DNA of 63,690 bases, counting the filler, from Atractiella rhizophila (Eukaryota), in the NCBI GenBank assembly GCA_021432655.1. It is 5 parts of 5 records of this genome, joined end to end, with 100 filler letters (N's around TTAATTAATTAA, not from the genome) between each part and the next. Parts side by side here need not be neighbours in the genome. Positions count along the whole stretch, not along the records: positions 1 to 16,581 come from MU271898.1; 4 more parts are not named here. One strand, 5' to 3'. Every line of letters begins with the position of its first letter. Position 1 is the stretch's first letter. The notes beneath the pieces are model-generated. The model did no database searches and had not been told where the DNA came from. It saw only the letters and a program-made list of their open reading frames with translations. The position numbers and the translations under genes were made by a program. This document shows positions 2,162-45,103 of this stretch, one piece after another.

Positions 2162-3763
2162 GTCTAGCAAACTTTGTCCCAAAATGTCCAAGAGAATGCG
2201 GTACAAGTAGTGGATTTCCAAAGGTCGTTCAAACTTGATGACAGGAATTATAAACAGCCAGCTGGCCCGTATCTGCTGAGTGCCCGCATGTACGAGTACT
2301 AGTAAACTAGTCGGTTTTAATGTTGGCCACTAGAGTCATTAGCCGAAGGGCCTGAATTTCCCTGAACTTCAAAAATCTATCCGTAAGCTATCCGTCCTGA
2401 GGTGGTGGCCCTGCTGTGGCGCACAGTGATTGCCAGCCGCCCAATACTAATCTCATTCGTTCTTTCAATAAATAGTAGCGGCACAGTATTTTTCTCGAGT
2501 CCAACAAGCAAATTGGACGGGAAACGGCATGGGGTATCCACACAGGATAGTGCATATCAAATGGTGCATGTAGGCTGATCCTGGACGACATCACGCCTAA
2601 AGTTATGAAGAATTATTATTGACATTTGGATAAACACTATTCTTCACTTCACGCTTGAGAAGAAATTGCAAGGCGAGCGAGCATACCGTCACACTCAATC
2701 ACAGATGTAGGCCGTGCCTGCTCTGCCTCGATGATGGCGTCTAGTTCTACGATAAGTTGCCAGTCATTTTGGTCGACAGCCCACTTTCATCCACCTTTTG
2801 CTCCTCACAACATCAGCGAAGCTTTCGCTGAGGACTCAGAACAGAACATCACGCAGAGTTGGGGTGCTTATCACGCTTTCTTTCACGTAAACTATCACGG
2901 CTACGAGGTCCCGAGTCAGCTTTTTAGGGTGACAAAAGCACAAAAGAGGAAGCTAGAAGCTTATTCTATTGAAGATTAATGCATGATTCTGCGTGAGCTG
3001 AACAACGAACAGGTTCGCAGTCTCATTCACCAATGAAGAGGTTTTGCAATTTTCTTTTTGTTTCAGATTCGGTTGCATAGGCTGATCCTCTCTACTTGTT
3101 CCGTTACTCTTGCAAACATTACGCTCATAGTACCTTTATGAAATATCAAGAAAACTCATACTCATTGTCCATTCCTTGATGTTCTTGATTTCCTCATCGT
3201 TCTTTTGTACAAAAGTGACACGAAGACAATCTCGGGATCTTGGAGAAAAAAATATATGATTTGTTTATGAAACCGTCATGAAAGGCTCATCCGCTCCCCG
3301 CAACAACAAAAAGTAAGGGCAAGGGCCGAAAGGAACCCCCCAACCAAAATGAAAAAAACCAACAGCCTAACCCCCTAACTTAAAAACTCCAAGCGACTTC
3401 AAATAGCAGGAGATAGCATACCTCTACCTCGCACCTTTCTTAGGCCGTTTGAACTCATAACCCTGCCCTGCCGCCAGTAGTGACGCGGTCAATATAAGAA
3501 TCCCTGCCGAATCCATCCATGCGGCACCCTGGACATTCCTCTCCGCCACTTTCCTGTACACATAAGATCGTAAGAGGCTTCCCTCTACTCTTCTTCCAAC
3601 TCTAGCATCTAGCATTGTTCTTCCTTCGTCGTTCGATTGGATGACCTCAGCCTTCTAACCAACAACACAACTTCTCCACTTCAGCTTGACAACTTTTCTT
3701 CACAAAGCAACACTTCTGCACTGCTGGACTGAACTTAGCCCAACTACTTCCCTCGCCAGCACG

Positions 3764-6691
<2,928 letters not shown>

Positions 6692-6955
6692 TGTCGGGTT
6701 AGATAATCTATTATCAAAAGTGGATATTTACTATCTTAGAGAGTCATAATATACATGTCCGCTGTCACATTACTTGATTGGGTTGGGATTTCGAAGGCAT
6801 CAATGCCGGTTAGGTTACTGAAACAATGCTTAAGTGAAATCAATGAAAGAAGACCGAATTAACGACGAAGGAGCTGAACTGAACAGGGAGCAGTCATAAG
6901 CCTGCTCCTCGACCTCTGGACTCCACCACCCACTCTCCATTGAGGTCTGGATCGA

Positions 6956-9900
6956 CTACTGCATCATAGAGGAATCTCCGTTCCCATTCAGAGGTCGAAA
7001 GGTCAATCCTCTCTGTTGGACATCTGCCCTTGGAGCAGAAGGTGTCGCAGTGCCAGACGGTGAGGGATCAATGACGATCATTTCTCCTGATCGTTGAGGA
7101 GATAAATTTGTGTTCAGCGACGCGAATTCCTCCTCTGTCTTGACGGGGATATCGAGGCTCTCTTGTAGATAGAAAGGCTCCTCTTCAGTGTGAACACGAG
7201 TATCTAGAGGTCGAGCGTTGGGCTCATCGGATGGTAGCGCAACTGGGATGTCATCCTCGCCCGAACCCTCAATAGCGGAAGCATTTTGTAATGCTCGAGT
7301 GATAGTGGACTGAGAAACTTCAACTGCGACGTCTACTGGGATATCAGGTTGTCCATCTTGCTCTTGAAACTGCAATCCAGGCCCTGTCTCCGTTGAAGAC
7401 TGATCCATTTGATCTGCCTCCTGCGCTGTCGATGCTGGCTGCATTCGGCCTTCTTGTTGCTGCATGACCTCTAGTTCAAGGGGATGAAGTTCCAAAGGCC
7501 TGTCACCATCGACACTTTCAGAATAATTTTGAAGAGAGGGAGGGGTGGAACGAACCTTCGGATCCATTTGCCGTCCTCTGCTTGAACAAACGAACTTTTG
7601 GCTTGTCCAAACCACTGTCTGACCTGGCCAGCACTGACACCTATCCTCAGGGCGAGCGACTCTCTCTCCGACGGTGAAGCAAAGCCATGATCCCTGACCC
7701 ATTCCTCCAGCGATCGTTGAGCTAGAATCCAAAGCGACCCATCAGACCGCTTAAGGTTAGATGGGAAGGGGAAAGACGGACCATCAGCTGACATCGGGAG
7801 TTTTCTCCTCGTCTGCTTTCCTTGCGGCTTGGAGGGTTTGTCCCTCCCGGTCCCCCAACGATTCAACCTAGCCAACCCAAGACGTCAGCTTGAGCGGGAC
7901 GGTGTTGAGTGACGCACGCGGCTGGAACGTAGGGCCCGCTCCCACTCCTCTTCCTCGCTCCATTAAACCAACTCTGCACCTGCAGCTTTGTCAAGCCAGT
8001 TTTTTGAACCAGCTCAGCAACTTCTTGAGGTGTGGGCTTCAGGGTGCGGACTGCGGTGGCCTCGAGCTCATTCAATACTACATGTTAAGGGCCACAATTG
8101 GTCATGATATAAAAGGAAAGAAGGGAATGACGAACTGGCTTCTGAGAAATGTGAACCCCTGGTCTGCATGACTGGCATAGCGGGAAGCTGCATCTCTCCT
8201 GCTGCATCCTTCTCTCCCGATACACCTGTACCTTCTCCTTCTTCTGCTTCTCCGACCACAGCATCTCCCTCTCCGCTTCTGAGCACCTGCACATTCACGG
8301 GTTGGCCCTTGATGCTATTCCGTATGCCCATTTTGAGTCAGCAAGCTATTTTCCCCACATAGGAAAAGGAGCGAGGGGGATGGATACCTGAGCACGCCAC
8401 GGGACTTGAGGGAACGCCTCAGATGACAAAACCAGGCGTCTACCTGTCTGAGGGACAGTTGGGTCATTTGGCTCAACTGCTTCTTGCTCTCCTTCAACGG
8501 GTACGCGCCGTTCATTTCCACCCACGACGAAAGGACCTGGATCACTGTCATTCCGCGACGCGCTCATAAGCCCTTCGCTCATCGGGGTAGCAGGATAGAA
8601 AACATAAAAGGGAAGACGTGGACACACCCTCCGCGGGATAAGGCTTTCTATGCACTTCTCCTAGTAACCTCGGCTCCTCTCCGCCTCCAGCTCCAACGGT
8701 TTCCCGCTTCCCTGCACCACCACCATTACCATCAAGAGAGAACCCATTCTCCGCTGCGAGAGGGAAGGTTGGACCGGAAGGAGGGACGAAATCGCTCTGG
8801 TCGTTGAGAAAACTTGTTGATGCGACGGGGTTTGTCTCCTCCATCGAATCGGAGGGTTGTGGTGATTGGTCAAGTGAATGTTGTTGCACGTCAGGAGGAG
8901 GGGGAGGTTGTGCTGGAGGGAGAGGTGCCACCCTCCTGGCCCATGCTAACCAAGCCTCGAGGTCTTCAATTTCGATGTTGGCTTGTGCACAGAGGTCCTC
9001 TTTCACGTCAATTGAGGGATAAGGGAAAGAGATATGGTCTTCTATCCAATCTCTCAAGATCGAAGCAGCTGCCGCCATACCAACCGTAGGTTAACGTTGT
9101 AAAGATAAGAAGTAACTATGGAACGAACAGGAAGTTGGAAGTGGCGGTGGAAGTGGATGGGTCGGGATGAACCTGTCCCCTGCAGCGCGGAAGAGCCATT
9201 CATGAATGCGTTCTAGCGAGATCTCCAAAGTCGCACAAAAGTGCGCTTTCTCGTCCGGAAACAGGTATGGAAAGGCAAGATGAGAGGCATGCCACGACAT
9301 CAGTTCCGTGAGAGCTGTTAGAAATAGACCAACGTTAGAACGTTTGCTAGAAGGAGAGGAAAAGCACTCACCTGCAGTAGGTAGGAGATGACGGGTGAAC
9401 CAGTCCCGAACTTTTGTGATTGACCATCCCGTTTTACTACTTAGCTCTTCAAGCTGTTCGTTCGATGGTGTCCACTCTTCTCCTCCCCAATTACGCTCTC
9501 TAAAGCTGCACAGTATCTCCTCCACCTCTCTCGAGTCCTCAACTGCCTCTACCCGTGACGCGTTTTCCACATCTATATCCGCCAAATTGAAACGACCTTC
9601 ATCCCAGGCAGTTTCGAAAGCAGGTTGGTAAGAAACCGAATGATGGACCACTCCACTTTTCTCCAAAAACCAATCTCGAATACTCTCCCCGTTCAACGCC
9701 GTCTTCCTCCTCAAAGACTCCATCTCTTCTCCTGCGGGCACACCAACGTCCAGATGCGCCTCCCTCCATTCTTCTAGTATCCTTTTCGCGGTCGCAGGGA
9801 TTGAACGCGGATTCTTCCTCTTCATCTTCGACGGCCCTTCGCCTGTGTCTTGGTCTGGATTGTCCCGCGACGCTTCCGACGCCACCGCTTGGGTGCGACG

Positions 9901-10060
9901 ACGCTTGGGACGTCGGGGAATGGCGGTCGGCGCTGGTCCAGGGGGTCGATCGACGGGTCGAGGTATAGTCATTGTTATGGCGGTTTGTGTGCTGGAGCAA
10001 GTTAGCATTTCACCCCTACAAAAGGCTGTGAGGAAGTGCTTACGTCCGAGCCAAGTGCAT
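6956..10060 (-). CDS. Multi-homeodomain protein, seven tandem TALE-like homeodomains, ~851 aa, 10 exons
   Basis: Introns at 9992-10043, 9315-9371, 9069-9128, 8545-8627, 8315-8387, 8078-8135, 7868-7917, 7722-7781 and 7500-7555 are all GT..AG and phase-compatible, giving a continuous 2556-nt ORF. The pattern L..W....(PYP)...L...T.L....V..W[FL] recurs seven times (e.g. ILRDWIEDHISFPYPS..LEAWLAWARR; LSQMTQLSLRQVDAWFCHLRR; KTGLTKLQVQSWFNGARKR). The first exon is the least certain; alternative ATG at 9972. Confidence 0.82.
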
Positions 10061-10934
10061 ACGATGCTGGCTCAGATGATATCGCTGGAGAAGTTTCTTA
10101 TTATTTAACAAGATGGTCGATTATATTCCAAGTTCTAACCTTATTGAACGGTCAAATTTTATCTTTTCTTCCGCCCGCAACTACTGCTGCGGTCGCAATG
10201 TTATTGGGATCAAGATGTCTTCTTTCTTTGGATATCATACATGTCATATATCATGCGTTGATGCTACACCTCTGATTTCCCAGTCTCCTCTGGGTGGAGG
10301 AGTATGAAAACTCGCACCCTGTCCGCACCCATAGATACAGCTGCCCTTGTGTCCTCGAAAGCTTGGCTGCCAGTGCTTCTCTTTGCACTATTTGGTCTCT
10401 TCAAGCAACGGTGATTTATGCACAAAGCGTCAAACAGCCTAGCTTGAAGTTATATGGGCTCAGAAATGGGTTTTACTTCGCCGTGGCTCCTTGTTCTACC
10501 TCATTCCATTTCTCGGATTGTGGCAGCAAGCTTGCATCTATTTCTGCTCATCCAAAGGACAAAGGAACGGATAGGATGTCAGCTCACCCGTCAGGGATTA
10601 TTGGAGAGCACGAGAGCCGCTCTAGTGCTCAAGGAGATCAGTTGCTAATTTCCTCAGAAAAGATGCATCACGTCTTGAGTAGCCGACAACCCTTCTTTGC
10701 TTTAATATCCAGGACATGAAATCGACGTGATGTCATGATCCAGAATCAATAGACACGTACCTATGATGTAGAAGACCCACCTATGTTGTAGACTCTAAGT
10801 GATCCTTTGCAAGAAATGTCGCTTCATGGCCAGAAGAGAACTCAACTCATGCTATTTGTGCTATGCCAACTGTAAATAACTGAGCTGAGAGAGACGGACA
10901 CCATCAGTCCCGTCATACGGAGCGACATCTCATC

Positions 10935-29743: not shown

Positions 29744-32700
29744 TTAGTCCTCCCAGTCTTCCCTTTTATCCTCTTCCTTTCCGCCTCCTGACTTCTTTCT
29801 CTCCTCCTTTCTCCTGTCTAACACCCTTTGTGCCCTCTTGATCCATAAGTTGAACTTGCCGCTCCTCCTAATGAATTCCCATACCGCTTGGATCGCTTCC
29901 GGCTTGCTTAAGAGGTCGCTGAGAGATCTAAACCGGATGTCCTTCTTCCGTAACCTGATCTTTAGCTTCCTCCTTTCTTCGTCATATTCTTCGCATTCGA
30001 AGAAGAAGTGGGAAACAGTATCACGCATGCCACACTGGTTGCAGCCTGGGTCCTCTTTGATCCCGATTCTGTGTAGGTAGTCGTTCACAGAGATGTGCCC
30101 GGATCGGAGCTGGACAAAGATGGATGCTTGAGCCCTGGGCATCGATGCTAGCATCTCGAATGTCTCTTCTGGCGACAATGCACGTGAGAGGGAGCGATGG
30201 TGCTTCCCCGAGGAGGATGTAGCGTTGGTGTATCTTTGGGTGAACATTGATGCTGAGATGGTGGACTTGAATGCCGAAGGGCTTGTTGGGAGGCTATGTG
30301 TTCCCGTTGCTTTCTTGGCATTAGTAGCTCCGTTGGCCGCTGAGTCTGCGAGTTCATTGCCTTTGATATCAGCATGGCCAGGGATCCAGTGTAACGAGAG
30401 GTTGGCAAGGGGGAACTCCCTTCGGAATGTGGAGGCGAGGTGGTGGATGTTCTTGACAACGCAAACCCCCGGTTTGCTTTTCGGCTTCTTAGCTAGGTTT
30501 TTGACTGCAGCCTGGGAATCCGTAAAGATACGGACCGAGGATTGGGTACCTCGTGTTCTGTTGAGTGCTATGCCCAACGCCAAGCCTCTGTCAATCCCCA
30601 GCAATTCTGCCTCGAAGACGGTGTTCTTGTCACAGCCGCCGATCCTGTAACCAGCCTTGATATCTGGATCTGTGATTGCCAGCCCGCATGCCACGCCATC
30701 TTCTGTTCTTGAACCATCCGTGAAGATCCAAGTTTCTCCTGCCTCCTGTACCAGCTCGTTGAACTCCCTGGAGGCATCTTCTTTTGTTTCTGCGATGGTG
30801 ACGTTGAACGGAGGGGTACACCCTGGGTGGGTGGTGAAGGACGGAATGACTTCGAGGCCTTTGGGGAAGGTGATTCTGGCCGAGTTGAAAGTGTAATTGA
30901 GTGGCGAGAGATGGGAACTAGGAGACGGCAGGGCCAGAGTTTTCCGGGCAATGAGACCTGCTGGGTTGGAGTTTGAAAGAGAGAGTAACCTGACTGTCGC
31001 CCTAGCGACTACCCTGTCCAGGCAGGCGACTACTGATGTGAGGTTGGAGTCGTAGGAGAGGGCAGAAGTGGGGGTCGTGCGGAAGGCCCCAAGTATTAGT
31101 CGTTGGGCATAGCGTTGAATGATTTCCAGGCGCGTGGCTCCGCCTGTCTTCTTCCCTAAGCGGTGCCATACCACTGCGTTGTTGTCGGTCATTGCGCATA
31201 CTGCAGCCTCGTAGAGGCGCCGATACAGTCATAGGGGGATTCCCTTCGTTGTGTTGGAGAGGGATGCCAGGAGGGAGAGCGAGGCTTTAGCCTTCTTCTC
31301 GATCGCTTTTAAATGAGAGTTGAAATTTAACCTGGAGTCAAGAAGCACTCCCAGGTATTTCATCTCTAGCGACTGTGGAATGGTTGTAGTTCCAACACGA
31401 ATAGTGAGGTGGCCGTATCGGGATTTCATCTTCCTCAGATGCCCGTATAGGACAAAGTCCGTTTTGGCCTCCTCAAATATGGCCCCATGCTTCTCACCCC
31501 AAGCCATTGCTTTATCGAGCATCACCTCAAGATTTGCGATGGCTTGTGACGGGTTAGTTGCACGGGTATTCATGTGGATGTCGTCTACGAACCCACATTT
31601 GAGATATGCCCCTCCCGGTGCCTGTATTTCCAAAAGGTCAGCATTGTAGAAGAGGTAGAGAATCGGAGAAAGGGGGGAGCCTTGTGCCAGTCCTACATGC
31701 AGGACGAAGAACTCCGAAGAATATCCATCGAAGTTATAGGTCGTGCTTCTTCCCCTTAGCCATGAGTTAATGATTCCCACCTCTTGTGTGGGGACCATTC
31801 TCTTCTTGAGGTTGTCAATGAGTCAGTCGTGGATGACGGTTGGAAAGGCCCCTTTGACATCAAGCGATACCGAAGCTGTGACTTCCTTTCTTCTCCAGCC
31901 CTCCCTTATGAAATCTGTAACGGTAAGGAGTGCATCATTAGTTGAGCGGCAGGGCCTCGCGCCAAAATGATGATCAGGAAGGGCCCCACTGCTCTCTGCA
32001 TGGAAGGAGAGTCTGGCTGCGATAACGCCGTCGAAAACCTTCCCTATGCAGTCGAGAAGAGCGATGGGGCGATAGGAGGAAGGGAGGGCATAGTCAGCTC
32101 GTTTTGGTTTCCTAAGGATAACGGTCGAGAAGCGCTTCCAGGCAGATGGATAATAGCCGATGCGGTAACAAGCTGAGAAGATTATGAAGAGTGGGGGGCG
32201 GATCTCTCCCCTTAGCTCCTTCAGGAGCTTATTAGAGATACCCGTCATGCCTGGGGCTGAGTTCGTTTTTAATCTGTCTAGAGCTTCGTCAATTTCCTCG
32301 ATTTTAAGGGGAGGGGATTGGTGAGGGGGGGGTTGGTGGATAGAAGGCAGGTCAGAGAGGTCATAGTGGAGAGCAGAAGGGTTGAAAGTGGAGTGGAATA
32401 GGTGAGCCTTGTCAGCAGGGGAGGAAACGGGGCCATTGGGGGCATCATTTGGGTTCCCTTGTCGTTTGAGAGGCGGAATATCTCGACACCGTTCTTCCCT
32501 CTTACCATATTTGTGCGCTGTCCAGATGGTGTGTTGATCCAGGTCAGCGAGGAAATCTTCGAAATGGAGGGATTTGGCTGTTTTAATATCAGTATGGAAT
32601 TGGTTAGCAGCCTTACGCCATAACATGCGAGCTTCGTAGGTGGGTTCTTTGCTGTCTGACCGTCGTAGCCTTAGGAATCTGTTCCGTAGCTTGTTAACTA

Positions 32701-33217
32701 TCTTCTTCTTCTTCGTAAGTTGATCCGTCCACCACCTTTTGATGGGTGGGGTCTTCGAAGCCCTTGGGAGCAGCTTTGAAGCTTCCATTAACGCCAAGGT
32801 GAGGTTTTCCACTGCTGCATCTATCTCCTCCAGCGTCGAGAGCCGATCCGTGTGTCCCGGGATGCCTGCAATCAAGTCTGACTGTTGAAGGAAGTCTCTT
32901 ACCGATTCCCAATCAGCTGACTGGTAGTTGTACCGGGGACGCGGATCGAACGCTGGAGGGATAAGTGATAGAGTTGTGAGTAACCTGTAGTGGTCAGAGT
33001 TGTGGCTGTCTCCCCCTTGGTCAGTCACACAGTATGAGATGAACTCATCAGCAAAATCGTTTGTAAAGATTAGATCGATAGTTGTCTCGTATCCCAGGGC
33101 ACTGATGTAGGTAGGAATGCCTGCCTGAGATCTGAGTGTAAGTCCTAGTTCTTGGAAGACCTCTAGGAGAATGGTTGCGTTGCCATCAATTTTCGTATAC
33201 CCTGGTGGGTTCCACTC
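29744..33217 (-). mobile_element. Non-LTR retrotransposon (Tad1/LINE-like) ORF2: endonuclease, RT, RNase H and Cys/His motif; 5' end cut by contig edge; two in-frame TGA stops
   Basis: Endonuclease TTIDLIF..SDH; RT YRPIALLDCIGK, HFGARP.RST, SLDVKGAF, GLAQGSPLSPILYLFY, FVDD; RNase H IFTDGS, VFEAELLGI, IFTDSQAA, WIPGH.DIKGNELAD; CNQC..DTVSHFFFEC. The three ORFs share one frame, separated by TGA at 31823 and 31229. Confidence 0.96.
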
Positions 33218-33317
33218 NNNNNNNNNNNNNNNNNNNNNNNNNNNNNNNNNNNNNNNNNNNNTTAATTAATTAANNNNNNNNNNNNNNNNNNNNNNNNNNN
33301 NNNNNNNNNNNNNNNNN
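33218..33317. other. Artificial contig linker
   Basis: 44N-TTAATTAATTAA-44N. Confidence 0.97.
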
Positions 33318-43611: not shown

Positions 43612-44095
43612 CAGACTCTATGTATCTTTAGTTGGCAGTCCACTTCTTTCTGGCGTAGTGAATTGTGTGTCTGTGTGCAAATAGTTGGTTGAACCTTCTC
43701 AGACGGAGTAGTGCCTTCTAAATATCACATGATCTAGTACTATCAGACAACTTAAAGTTGAATTACAGTAACACCTTACGAGTCTATATTTCTTGACCAT
43801 TTACAGTATGGCCGTTAATTCTACAATATCCAAGCTCTTCTTCCTTGCGGTGTCACCTCTGAGTATATATGCATTGAATTTTTGCTGGCATTTTACCGAC
43901 ACAGCCCTCAATCCACCTACCGCCACTGTTGATAACAATCCCGTCAGATTTGTATTGATTCTTGCCAAATGCAACTCTCAATCTTGATTCTAGGACCCAA
44001 CAACTATTTCCAGCCAACATCCTGATTCGTCACAACCTTGCGAAGAGGATGGACATGGGACTCTTGTTACACCTCTTGCCAATTATACAGCACCT

Positions 44096-45103
44096 GTGTG
44101 CCGACTTCCCCCTGAACTCCTCATGCAGGTTTTTAGCTACCTTGAAGGGAAACAATCGACATCTGTCCTACTGACCTGCAAGCTCTGGCAACGATGCGCT
44201 GAGCCGAAAATTTACGAGTTTTTGGATCTGTCTGCATCACTTTCTGCTAACCTCATGCTATTGGTCAGGACTCTTTCTGCCCGTCCATACTTGACCAAAT
44301 TTGCTACCCGAATCTCTTTAGGTATCGGCAAACTACCTCCACTCCCAGATTGGCTCCCTGTTCTGTCCAAATGCCCCTGCATCGAAGTCCTACGCTGGTG
44401 GTCTTGGACCACCACCGAAGATGCTATCCTAATCGTGAATTCTTGGCCAAATTCACTTCGCGAACTGCATTTGATGAACATCGACGCATCGAAGATGAAT
44501 AACCGAGTTCTCGAGACTTGCCTGAGCCTCTCAAATCTGAGGACTCTCTGCTTAACCGATTTTAATCTGCCCACTGAACTAAAGGTTGCCCCGCTTGCTG
44601 GTATTCAATATTTGGCATGGGAGTCCTTCCATTTCTCTACACTTTTATCACAGCTTTTGCGCTGCATCAGTCATACACTCGTCCGGTTGCATCTCGCTTT
44701 CCATATGGCAGATATAAAAGAAGTTGTCTTGCTACGACAAGCTTTCGGCGAGCTGACGTTGCTTCGCGAATTTGGGCTTACGACGATTTTGGGAAGCGTG
44801 CGACCATTCCTGGATGACCTCATCCTTAGTTTAGAAGACATTGAAATCCTTCGTTGTGAAGCACCTGCCTTTTCACGAACATTGCTCTCCCGGTTACCTA
44901 GCAATCTCGCTGTTCTAGAGCTTGCGTGGCTTTCATCCTACGAGGATGGATACGAACCACCGATAACTGATGGGCTTCTTCAGATGCTCGACCTCCATGG
45001 CAAGAAGAATTTGAAGGAGATCGCTATCGTGTCGGGGGTCACAGAGCCCAAAGACGGCTTGAAATTGGAAGATTTGAAAAATGTGCCATCAACTAGGGAT
45101 TAA
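44096..45103 (+). CDS. F-box / LRR(RNI-like) protein (main exon; true ends may extend)
   Basis: CRLPPELLMQVFSYL..VLLTCKLWQRCAEPKIY is an F-box; repeated LxxLxL units follow (SLRELHL, NLRTLCL, TLVRLHL, NLAVLEL). Confidence 0.8.
   Translation: MCRLPPELLMQVFSYLEGKQSTSVLLTCKLWQRCAEPKIYEFLDLSASLSANLMLLVRTLSARPYLTKFATRISLGIGKLPPLPDWLPVLSKCPCIEVLRWWSWTTTEDAILIVNSWPNSLRELHLMNIDASKMNNRVLETCLSLSNLRTLCLTDFNLPTELKVAPLAGIQYLAWESFHFSTLLSQLLRCISHTLVRLHLAFHMADIKEVVLLRQAFGELTLLREFGLTTILGSVRPFLDDLILSLEDIEILRCEAPAFSRTLLSRLPSNLAVLELAWLSSYEDGYEPPITDGLLQMLDLHGKKNLKEIAIVSGVTEPKDGLKLEDLKNVPSTRD

Follow-up and report, generated by a model that had tools for sequence, protein, structure and literature searches.

The minus strand of a 63,690-nucleotide stretch of Atractiella rhizophila DNA (assembly GCA_021432655.1; the whole stretch is called the window below) carries, at positions 6956..10060, a gene that encodes seven homeodomain folds in one protein, an arrangement that is rare in fungi. 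This multi-homeodomain gene is real, spliced and transcribed. Six of its seven homeodomain units are solid and one (unit 3) is degenerate, and the protein is a new fungal example of the multi-homeodomain proteins, with units derived from the TALE (three-amino-acid loop extension) class.

Gene structure and transcription

Before splicing, the reading frames on the minus strand from 10060 to 6956 are fragmented. The gene model has nine introns, all GT..AG on that strand and 50-83 nt long, and a coding sequence (CDS) of 10 exons and 851 codons that runs from the ATG at 10060-10058 to the TAG stop at 6958-6956; computed splicing and translation of the 10 exons give an 851-amino acid (aa) product without an internal stop. 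Gene coordinates and protein length match exactly those of a preliminary description of this DNA, which had proposed nine canonical introns and one protein of ~851 aa. Exon 1 (10044..10060) has only 17 nt, codons 1-5, and is separated by intron 1 (10043-9992, GT..AG) from exon 2 (9372..9991, 620 nt), which encodes a basic N-terminal region, containing a PKRRR-type stretch, ahead of units 1 and 2, both unsplit. An alternative in-frame ATG at 9972 would yield 839 aa, and either ATG is possible as the start.

Transcript evidence comes from the assembled contigs of a public run of 2013 whose library kind is unrecorded (X2). Aligned to positions 6700-10400, these contigs leave out each of the nine introns exactly where the model places it, and the skipped segments have CT..AC ends when read on the plus strand; as the contigs lack the nine canonical introns, they are derived from mRNA, and the junctions that had been predicted are confirmed at nine of nine joints. 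Contig depth extends from 6948 to 10171 with no empty 124-base bin. One X2 contig joins exons 10 and 9 and proceeds via joints across introns 8 and 7, another joins exons 4, 3 and 2, and the joint between exon 1 and exon 2 (9991/10044) is found in one contig. The intron-6 joint occurs in two forms, 8077/8136, and 8075/8136 with two other letters. A second run, the root metatranscriptome X1, supplies a single 151-nt contig, which falls within exon 9 and crosses no joint; it tells us nothing about splicing or habitat.

The X2 contigs fall into three identity classes, seven at ≥99%, six at 95-99% and eight at 90-95%, and the data suggest that at least two alleles or haplotypes of the multi-homeodomain gene are expressed in the sample. 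Divergence is highest in the 3' part, at 7082-7287 (15 differences in 206 nt).

The corresponding NCBI entry, retrieved with exon 2 as query, is the 852-aa hypothetical protein BT69DRAFT_1319714 of A. rhizophila (P0001). The protein encoded in the window is 98% identical to it, with 16 differences in 852 aligned columns, and the sequence here is therefore another allele or strain of the BT69DRAFT_1319714 gene. The preliminary description held that an ab initio view of the open reading frames (ORFs) hides the gene; annotation has not missed it, as the NCBI entry already bears homeobox Pfam matches on record.

Seven homeodomain units

To score the units we took 25 unrelated proteins of alignment A2, excluding its two window rows, and made a TALE-homeodomain profile of their homeodomain block. 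It finds exactly seven domains in the window protein, at residues 70-116 (unit 1, 23.4 bits), 181-205 (unit 2, 14.4 bits, helices 2-3 only), 209-253 (unit 3, 12.1 bits, the weakest), 271-321 (unit 4, 42.4 bits), 416-469 (unit 5, 42.2 bits), 548-579 (unit 6, 32.2 bits) and 613-656 (unit 7, 18.4 bits); 200 shuffles of the protein gave no domain of 5 bits or more, the maximum being 2.4 bits. Pfam profiles were read against their cut-offs, 24 bits for Homeobox_KN (PF05920) and 22.9 bits for PF00046. On single-exon translations Homeobox_KN exceeds its cut-off for the exon of units 1 and 2 (28 bits, two stretches), unit 4 (36.6), unit 5 (33.7) and unit 6 (37.2), and falls below it for unit 3 (15.8 bits) and unit 7 (14.6 bits; PF00046 16.3). 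On the whole P0001 protein, Homeobox_KN scores 135.3 bits (E 5.7e-40) in six stretches and PF00046 scores 73.7 bits in four, the best of which is unit 6 (27.7 bits as a single exon).

The AlphaFold2 model of P0001, made with a 78-row alignment, has three-helix bundles with a predicted local distance difference test score (pLDDT) >90 in units 1, 4, 5, 6 and 7 and of 79-94 in unit 2; every linker is disordered, as is the tail. Unit 3 modelled alone with a domain-level alignment forms three helices at pLDDT 90-95. In Foldseek searches against the PDB the top matches are all homeodomains (the DUX4 double homeodomain, Exd, TGIF1, MEIS, PKNOX1 and MATalpha2), with template modelling (TM) scores by target of 0.8-0.89 for Exd, MEIS and TGIF1, and of 0.7-0.89 when MATalpha2 is included. 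The proposal of seven homeodomain-like units in one protein is thus upheld, seven of seven by our profile and all by predicted three-helix bundles, with unit 3 forming one only with the domain-level alignment.

All units lie on the minus strand. Unit 1 (9646..9825, aa 62-121) has helices at 72-84, 94-103 and 107-118 (pLDDT >90), a basic N-terminal arm, a third helix that starts WFLEKS and a net charge of +2. Unit 2 (9379..9561, aa 150-210; WFTRHL, net charge -5) has a long loop between helices 1 and 2, its helices lying at 150-173, 183-193 and 197-207. The remaining five units are each split by an intron: unit 3 (9175..9396, aa 205-259; WLFRAA, -3) by intron 2; unit 4 (8923..9159, aa 265-323; WLAWAR, -6; pLDDT 96-98), which has no basic arm, by intron 3; unit 5 (8396..8655, aa 413-471; WFCHLR, +6; pLDDT 96-98), with Arg at arm position 5, by intron 4; unit 6 (7932..8163, aa 525-582; WFNGAR, +3; pLDDT 94-97), with the typical 60-residue spacing, by intron 6; and unit 7 (7579..7812, aa 606-663; WFGQAK, +3; pLDDT 92-97), with a basic arm, by intron 8. 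Beyond them extends a disordered C-terminal tail (6959..7578, aa 664-851; pLDDT mostly <50), in which a Pfam scan of translated pieces finds no family; its net charge of -22 and isoelectric point (pI) of 4.1 bear out the acidic tail described earlier.

TALE affinity

A passage of PMC3360767 defines the TALE class by three extra residues between helices 1 and 2. Members of this class (MEIS/PKNOX, TGIF, PBX/Exd and yeast MATalpha2) are the best sequence and fold matches of individual units. By residue count, units 1, 3 and 4 are TALE-like in helix 1-2 spacing, with the MEIS/PKNOX distance between the helix-1 and helix-3 Trp and a P-Y-P-like loop; unit 5 has one extra residue (its alignment to TGIF needs a two-residue gap, unit 5 being the shorter), units 6 and 7 lack any, and the loop of unit 2 is longer. 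The array thus counted appears mixed in TALE spacing. Unlike these members of the class, the Atractiella protein has seven units rather than one, Asn51 is replaced in all of them, the loop is variable in length, and units 6 and 7 keep the ordinary 60-residue spacing. P0001 carries no MEIS, PBC, KNOX or BELL companion domain (Pfam, E up to 10) and no C2H2 zinc finger family (Pfam). The Homez profile scores 21 bits on P0001, exactly its cut-off, in a single stretch (185-205) that overlaps unit 2.

The recognition helix and charge

A passage of PMC3738460 names Asn51 and Arg5 of the N-terminal arm as base contacts in homeodomain-DNA complexes, with Asn51 contacting adenine. The canonical helix-3 motif W-[FLYIMV]-x-N-x-[RK] is found in none of the seven units, as against at least one copy in 121 of 156 other proteins compared. 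The residues at position 51 of units 1-7 are E, R, R, W, H, G and Q. In HMMER alignments, Trp of unit 4 stands in the Asn51 column of the PKNOX1 homeodomain (gapless, E 1e-6) and His of unit 5 in that of TGIF2LX and TGIF1; alignment A2 shows the same column replaced. The hydrophobic core is kept in all units (Leu16, Trp48, and Phe or Leu at position 49), Trp48 in seven of seven, and units 4, 5 and 6 also retain Arg53 followed by a basic residue.

Charge divides the units. Units 1, 5, 6 and 7, with net charges of +2, +6, +3 and +3, have basic N-terminal arms rich in Arg or Lys, and units 2-4 are acidic. Residues 1-61 have a net charge of +5 and a pI of 11.5, the linkers are acidic or proline-rich, and the whole protein has a net charge of -34 and a pI of 5.1. 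From its residues at the recognition helix, the Atractiella protein is predicted to have homeodomains that cannot read DNA in the textbook manner, and three of them, the acidic units 2-4, probably make no DNA contact.

Selection on the units

The seven units make up 404 residues, 47% of the protein, and contain only two of the 16 amino acid differences from the NCBI allele (binomial P 0.004), both of them conservative (E307D and L315F). The homeodomain folds are kept by selection. At the base level, for 40 of 83 differences, the units have six synonymous and one non-synonymous and the rest of the CDS 15 and 14. The 851-codon frame is open over ten exons in both alleles.

Origin of the array

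Introns 2 (9371-9315), 3 (9128-9069), 4 (8627-8545), 6 (8135-8078) and 8 (7781-7722) are all phase 1 and split the codon of homeodomain position 12, which precedes the helix-1 Trp (or the residue equivalent to it) by seven residues, in units 3, 4, 5, 6 and 7. Introns 5 (8387-8315), 7 (7917-7868) and 9 (7555-7500) are all phase 2 and lie shortly past units 5, 6 and 7, 15-19 residues beyond the Trp48 of each; the homeodomain exons of these three units are 157, 160 and 166 nt. The earlier statement that each homeodomain is split by an intron therefore holds for units 3-7 (five of the seven) and fails for units 1 and 2, which are whole in exon 2. Unit 3 pairs most closely with unit 4 (E 7e-9) and unit 1 with unit 7 (E 3e-6); no other pair stands out. 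Matches between units are weak, at 25-36% identity, and the copies are old. The recurring exon-phase pattern points to an exon unit copied serially within the gene, and the array would have grown there by repeated duplication of this homeodomain-encoding exon unit.

Relatives and lineage restriction

An exhaustive search of 1.84 billion representatives retrieved 150 proteins at E ≤0.001 and 14 at <1e-10; below 1e-30 there is only the query itself, and no orthologue was found in this set, the nearest non-self match having E 9e-24. Word-based searches of 5.8 billion proteins, with exon 2 and with residues 60-700 of P0001, returned only P0001. JGI metagenome contigs gave one 18-residue match at 78% identity with no homeodomain around it, which we take as chance. 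The gene accordingly looks lineage-specific, as first proposed, with only itself below 1e-30 in the one search and only itself in the other.

We scanned 36 of the 149 non-self matches with Pfam and looked up source names for 30. Among those scanned, the best relatives (E 9e-24 to 1e-10) are tandem arrays of 3-8 Homeobox_KN stretches each. Among those named, the sources are the ichthyosporeans Chromosphaera perkinsii, Creolimax fragrantissima and Sphaeroforma arctica, the choanoflagellate Choanoeca flexa, the diatom Cyclotella meneghiniana, eukaryotic metagenome contigs and one moth PKNOX2-like entry; the only other fungal multi-unit protein identified is the Aspergillus multicolor hypothetical protein BDW74DRAFT_175221 (P0032), and with 30 of 149 named, more fungal cases may be among the rest. 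The best alignments cover two adjacent units (query 179-319, 206-319 and 210-319) at 28-32% identity, with no shared flank and from scattered taxa. The nearest single-domain matches to individual units come from Acrasis, a rotifer and a dothideomycete, and given this scatter the similarity lies at the level of the domain and not of an orthologous family.

The protist and metagenomic TALE arrays (P0002-P0017) resemble the Atractiella protein in having multiple Homeobox_KN stretches, many of them likewise without the canonical helix-3 motif: P0002 has two such motifs against seven stretches and P0003 one against six, and P0013, P0017 and P0018 have none, nor has the fungal P0032. They differ in that identity is only 28-36% and confined to homeodomains, and their units are closely packed with short linkers. 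With no flanking region in common, orthology cannot be claimed, and the likeness could equally reflect independent duplications. The A. multicolor protein has four tandem homeodomain-like units (four Homeobox_KN stretches), all without Asn51 like those of Atractiella; it differs in belonging to the Ascomycota and in having its four units closely packed at the N-terminus, ahead of a long unrelated C-terminal half, and it matches at E 2.4e-7 and 27% identity. A word search with P0032 finds only itself.

Two side observations concern these arrays. Seven metagenomic and diatom proteins (P0002, P0003, P0004, P0007, P0013, P0017 and P0025) consist almost wholly of 4-8 closely packed TALE units with a recurring W-Y-x-E-H-x-S-x-P-Y-P motif in helix 1 and the loop and W-F-x-x-E-R-x-R in helix 3, mostly without Asn51; they look like an undescribed repeat family. 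The 1093-aa metagenomic protein P0008 has three Homeobox_KN units alongside two Tesmin/TSO1 CXC domains, a pairing of which we know of no description.

Comparison with known multi-homeodomain proteins and mating-type loci

Like the Atractiella protein, animal ZHX1-3/Homez, ZFHX3/ZFH-2 and DUX4 have several homeodomains per chain with disordered linkers. The Foldseek list is headed by DUX4 double homeodomains, and the ESM Atlas structure list by ZHX clusters at TM <0.2; the Atlas matches, with feature scores ≤0.82 and structure TM ≤0.18, serve as leads only. In contrast to the animal proteins, the Atractiella units are TALE-derived, there are no zinc fingers, and there is no sequence kinship past the homeodomain, a ZHX-type protein (P0035) matching at only 3.7e-7. 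The seven-unit array arose in the fungus independently of the animal arrays. The preliminary description had multi-homeodomain proteins as mainly animal. A passage of PMC7144352 agrees to the extent that it calls multiple homeodomains unusual and discusses them for ZHX/Homez and other zinc-finger classes. The databases widen the picture, with arrays of 3-8 units in ichthyosporeans, a choanoflagellate and a diatom and of four in Aspergillus, and in print a passage of PMC8476127 attributes multiple TALE homeodomains to the Marchantia proteins MpBELL2-4. Searches of the open literature found nothing on this gene or on fungal multi-homeodomain proteins, and subscription reviews of fungal homeobox genes may mention such; the published work on A. 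rhizophila that we found is, by title among the papers listed, ecology or taxonomy.

The HD1/HD2 pairs of the mating-type locus are also homeodomain proteins of basidiomycetes, with one homeodomain each and divergently paired genes, and the HD1-type proteins are TALE-like. We considered a mating-type HD1/HD2 locus here and rejected it, as there is no partner homeodomain gene within the 63.7-kb window: tblastn of P0001 matches only inside 6956-10060, with no second homeodomain gene elsewhere in the window.

Function and alternative explanations

The likeliest reading of the Atractiella protein, which we hold at about even confidence, is a lineage-specific nuclear transcription regulator that would make non-canonical DNA contacts through its basic units. 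Its basic N-terminal region with a nuclear-localisation-like stretch leads into seven TALE-derived folds, which are joined by acidic or proline-rich linkers and followed by the long acidic tail. Asn51 has been replaced in every unit while the folds are kept; the basic units 1, 5, 6 and 7, with their arms, might hold DNA in a way that is non-canonical, of low specificity or dependent on composite sites, the acidic units 2-4 might act as protein-contact modules, and the tail might be an activation or cofactor-recruiting region. Of the multi-homeodomain regulator proposed earlier, one lineage-specific gene encoding one protein stands, and the word regulator keeps its conditional: with Asn51 in none of the seven units and three of them acidic, the simple reading of seven DNA-binding domains is weakened.

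Several points tell against the picture drawn here. In the whole-protein AlphaFold2 model unit 3 has pLDDT <50 at residues 225-250, and its good model depends on the canonical homeodomains in its alignment. Foldseek E-values are all ≥0.01, as is usual for such a small fold. The X2 contig pieces are ≤625 nt, none spans the whole transcript, and they come from that library of unrecorded kind. The contrast between synonymous and non-synonymous differences points the same way as the amino acid differences but is not significant (Fisher P 0.11, for the same 40 of 83 differences). Save for 3 with 4, the units are no closer to their siblings than to foreign homeodomains, so that the evidence for the duplication history lies mainly in where the introns fall. 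Asn51 is gone from all units, which argues against ordinary sequence-specific binding, and "DNA-binding regulator" may be wrong altogether. The nuclear-localisation stretch and the activation tail are read from composition only.

The same loss of Asn51 would suit a scaffold or decoy that binds no DNA, its folds serving as protein-contact surfaces that bind or titrate other homeodomain factors (TALE or non-TALE) or chromatin proteins, comparable to the dimerising homeodomains of animal multi-homeodomain proteins. Such a protein would also explain three acidic units, one of them (unit 4) without a basic arm, and the net negative charge of the whole, in folds that are under constraint nonetheless; other tandem arrays mostly lack the canonical motif too. 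According to a passage of PMC7144352, some ZHX homeodomains may have taken on other functions or given up DNA binding, and one ZHX2 homeodomain is predicted not to bind DNA. However, four units are basic with Arg/Lys-rich arms, units 4-6 keep Arg53 and the basic residue after it, the basic N-terminal region and acidic tail resemble those of a transcription factor, and no partner is known or encoded beside the gene; we regard a scaffold as possible, if on the unlikely side. We judge it improbable that the gene is a young orphan, a duplication product that is decaying or drifting neutrally and is transcribed while its homeodomains no longer function. This would fit the lack of an orthologue in the 1.84 billion representatives or the JGI metagenome contigs (apart from the chance-like 18-residue match), the absence of Asn51 from all units, and the free variation of linkers and tail from allele to allele (14 non-synonymous and 15 synonymous of those 40 differences). 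Yet the 851-codon frame is open across ten exons in two alleles, amino acid differences shun the units (2 of 16, P 0.004), core positions Leu16, Trp48 and Phe or Leu49 are kept in all of them, and the units are old and diverged (25-36% identity) and still predicted to fold.

Two further explanations have little in their favour. Basic units that lack the duplex-reading Asn51 could form an array that binds RNA, or nucleic acid such as non-B DNA, in place of duplex sites; P0001 has no RNA-binding Pfam family, however, and the neighbourhood offers no hint of RNA metabolism, which leaves this very improbable. We find it scarcely credible that neighbouring single-homeodomain genes were wrongly joined by annotation or assembly. 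No single contig shown covers the whole transcript, but all nine joints are observed, contigs link exons 10 and 9 onward over introns 8 and 7 and exons 4, 3 and 2 to one another, depth fills every 124-base bin from 6948 to 10171, and there is neither an in-frame stop nor a start-like gap between units.

Beyond the single gene, tandem TALE-derived arrays without Asn51 might be a recurrent and unrecognised kind of eukaryotic protein in which the fold is re-used as a module, either to contact proteins or to read long degenerate DNA tracts. The Atractiella and A. multicolor proteins would then be its first fungal examples, independently invented by exon or segment duplication. We put this forward as a tentative idea and think it doubtful.

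Surroundings of the gene

On the plus strand, at about 3659-6691, lies a gene for a LETM1-like ribosome-binding domain (83.6 bits at 5048-5521) with an EF-hand pair (6428-6691), probably the Mdm38/LETM1 orthologue. It is convergent with the 3' end of the homeodomain gene; the other neighbours are unrelated ORFs. Elsewhere in the window, the minus strand holds at 29744-33265 a degenerate copy of a retrotransposon without long terminal repeats (non-LTR, LINE-type), made up of three contiguous same-frame ORFs with single stop codons between them and with Exo_endo_phos_2, RVT_1 and RNase_H domains. An open frame of 369 codons with an F-box-like domain (38.5 bits) lies on the plus strand at 43994-45103.

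Significance

Fungal homeodomain proteins are regarded as factors with one such domain that act in mating, development and metabolism. The value of the present case is limited, as it concerns an orphan gene of a little-studied root endophyte that was already deposited as a hypothetical protein. It nonetheless places in a basidiomycete, too, a poly-homeodomain architecture that in print belongs mainly to animal ZHX, ZFHX and DUX proteins and to liverwort BELL. The repeated phase-1 intron at homeodomain codon 12 is an unusually clear trace of exon duplication. With the fold kept and Asn51, regarded as essential for base reading, dropped in all seven units, the protein offers a natural test of the Asn51-less homeodomain.

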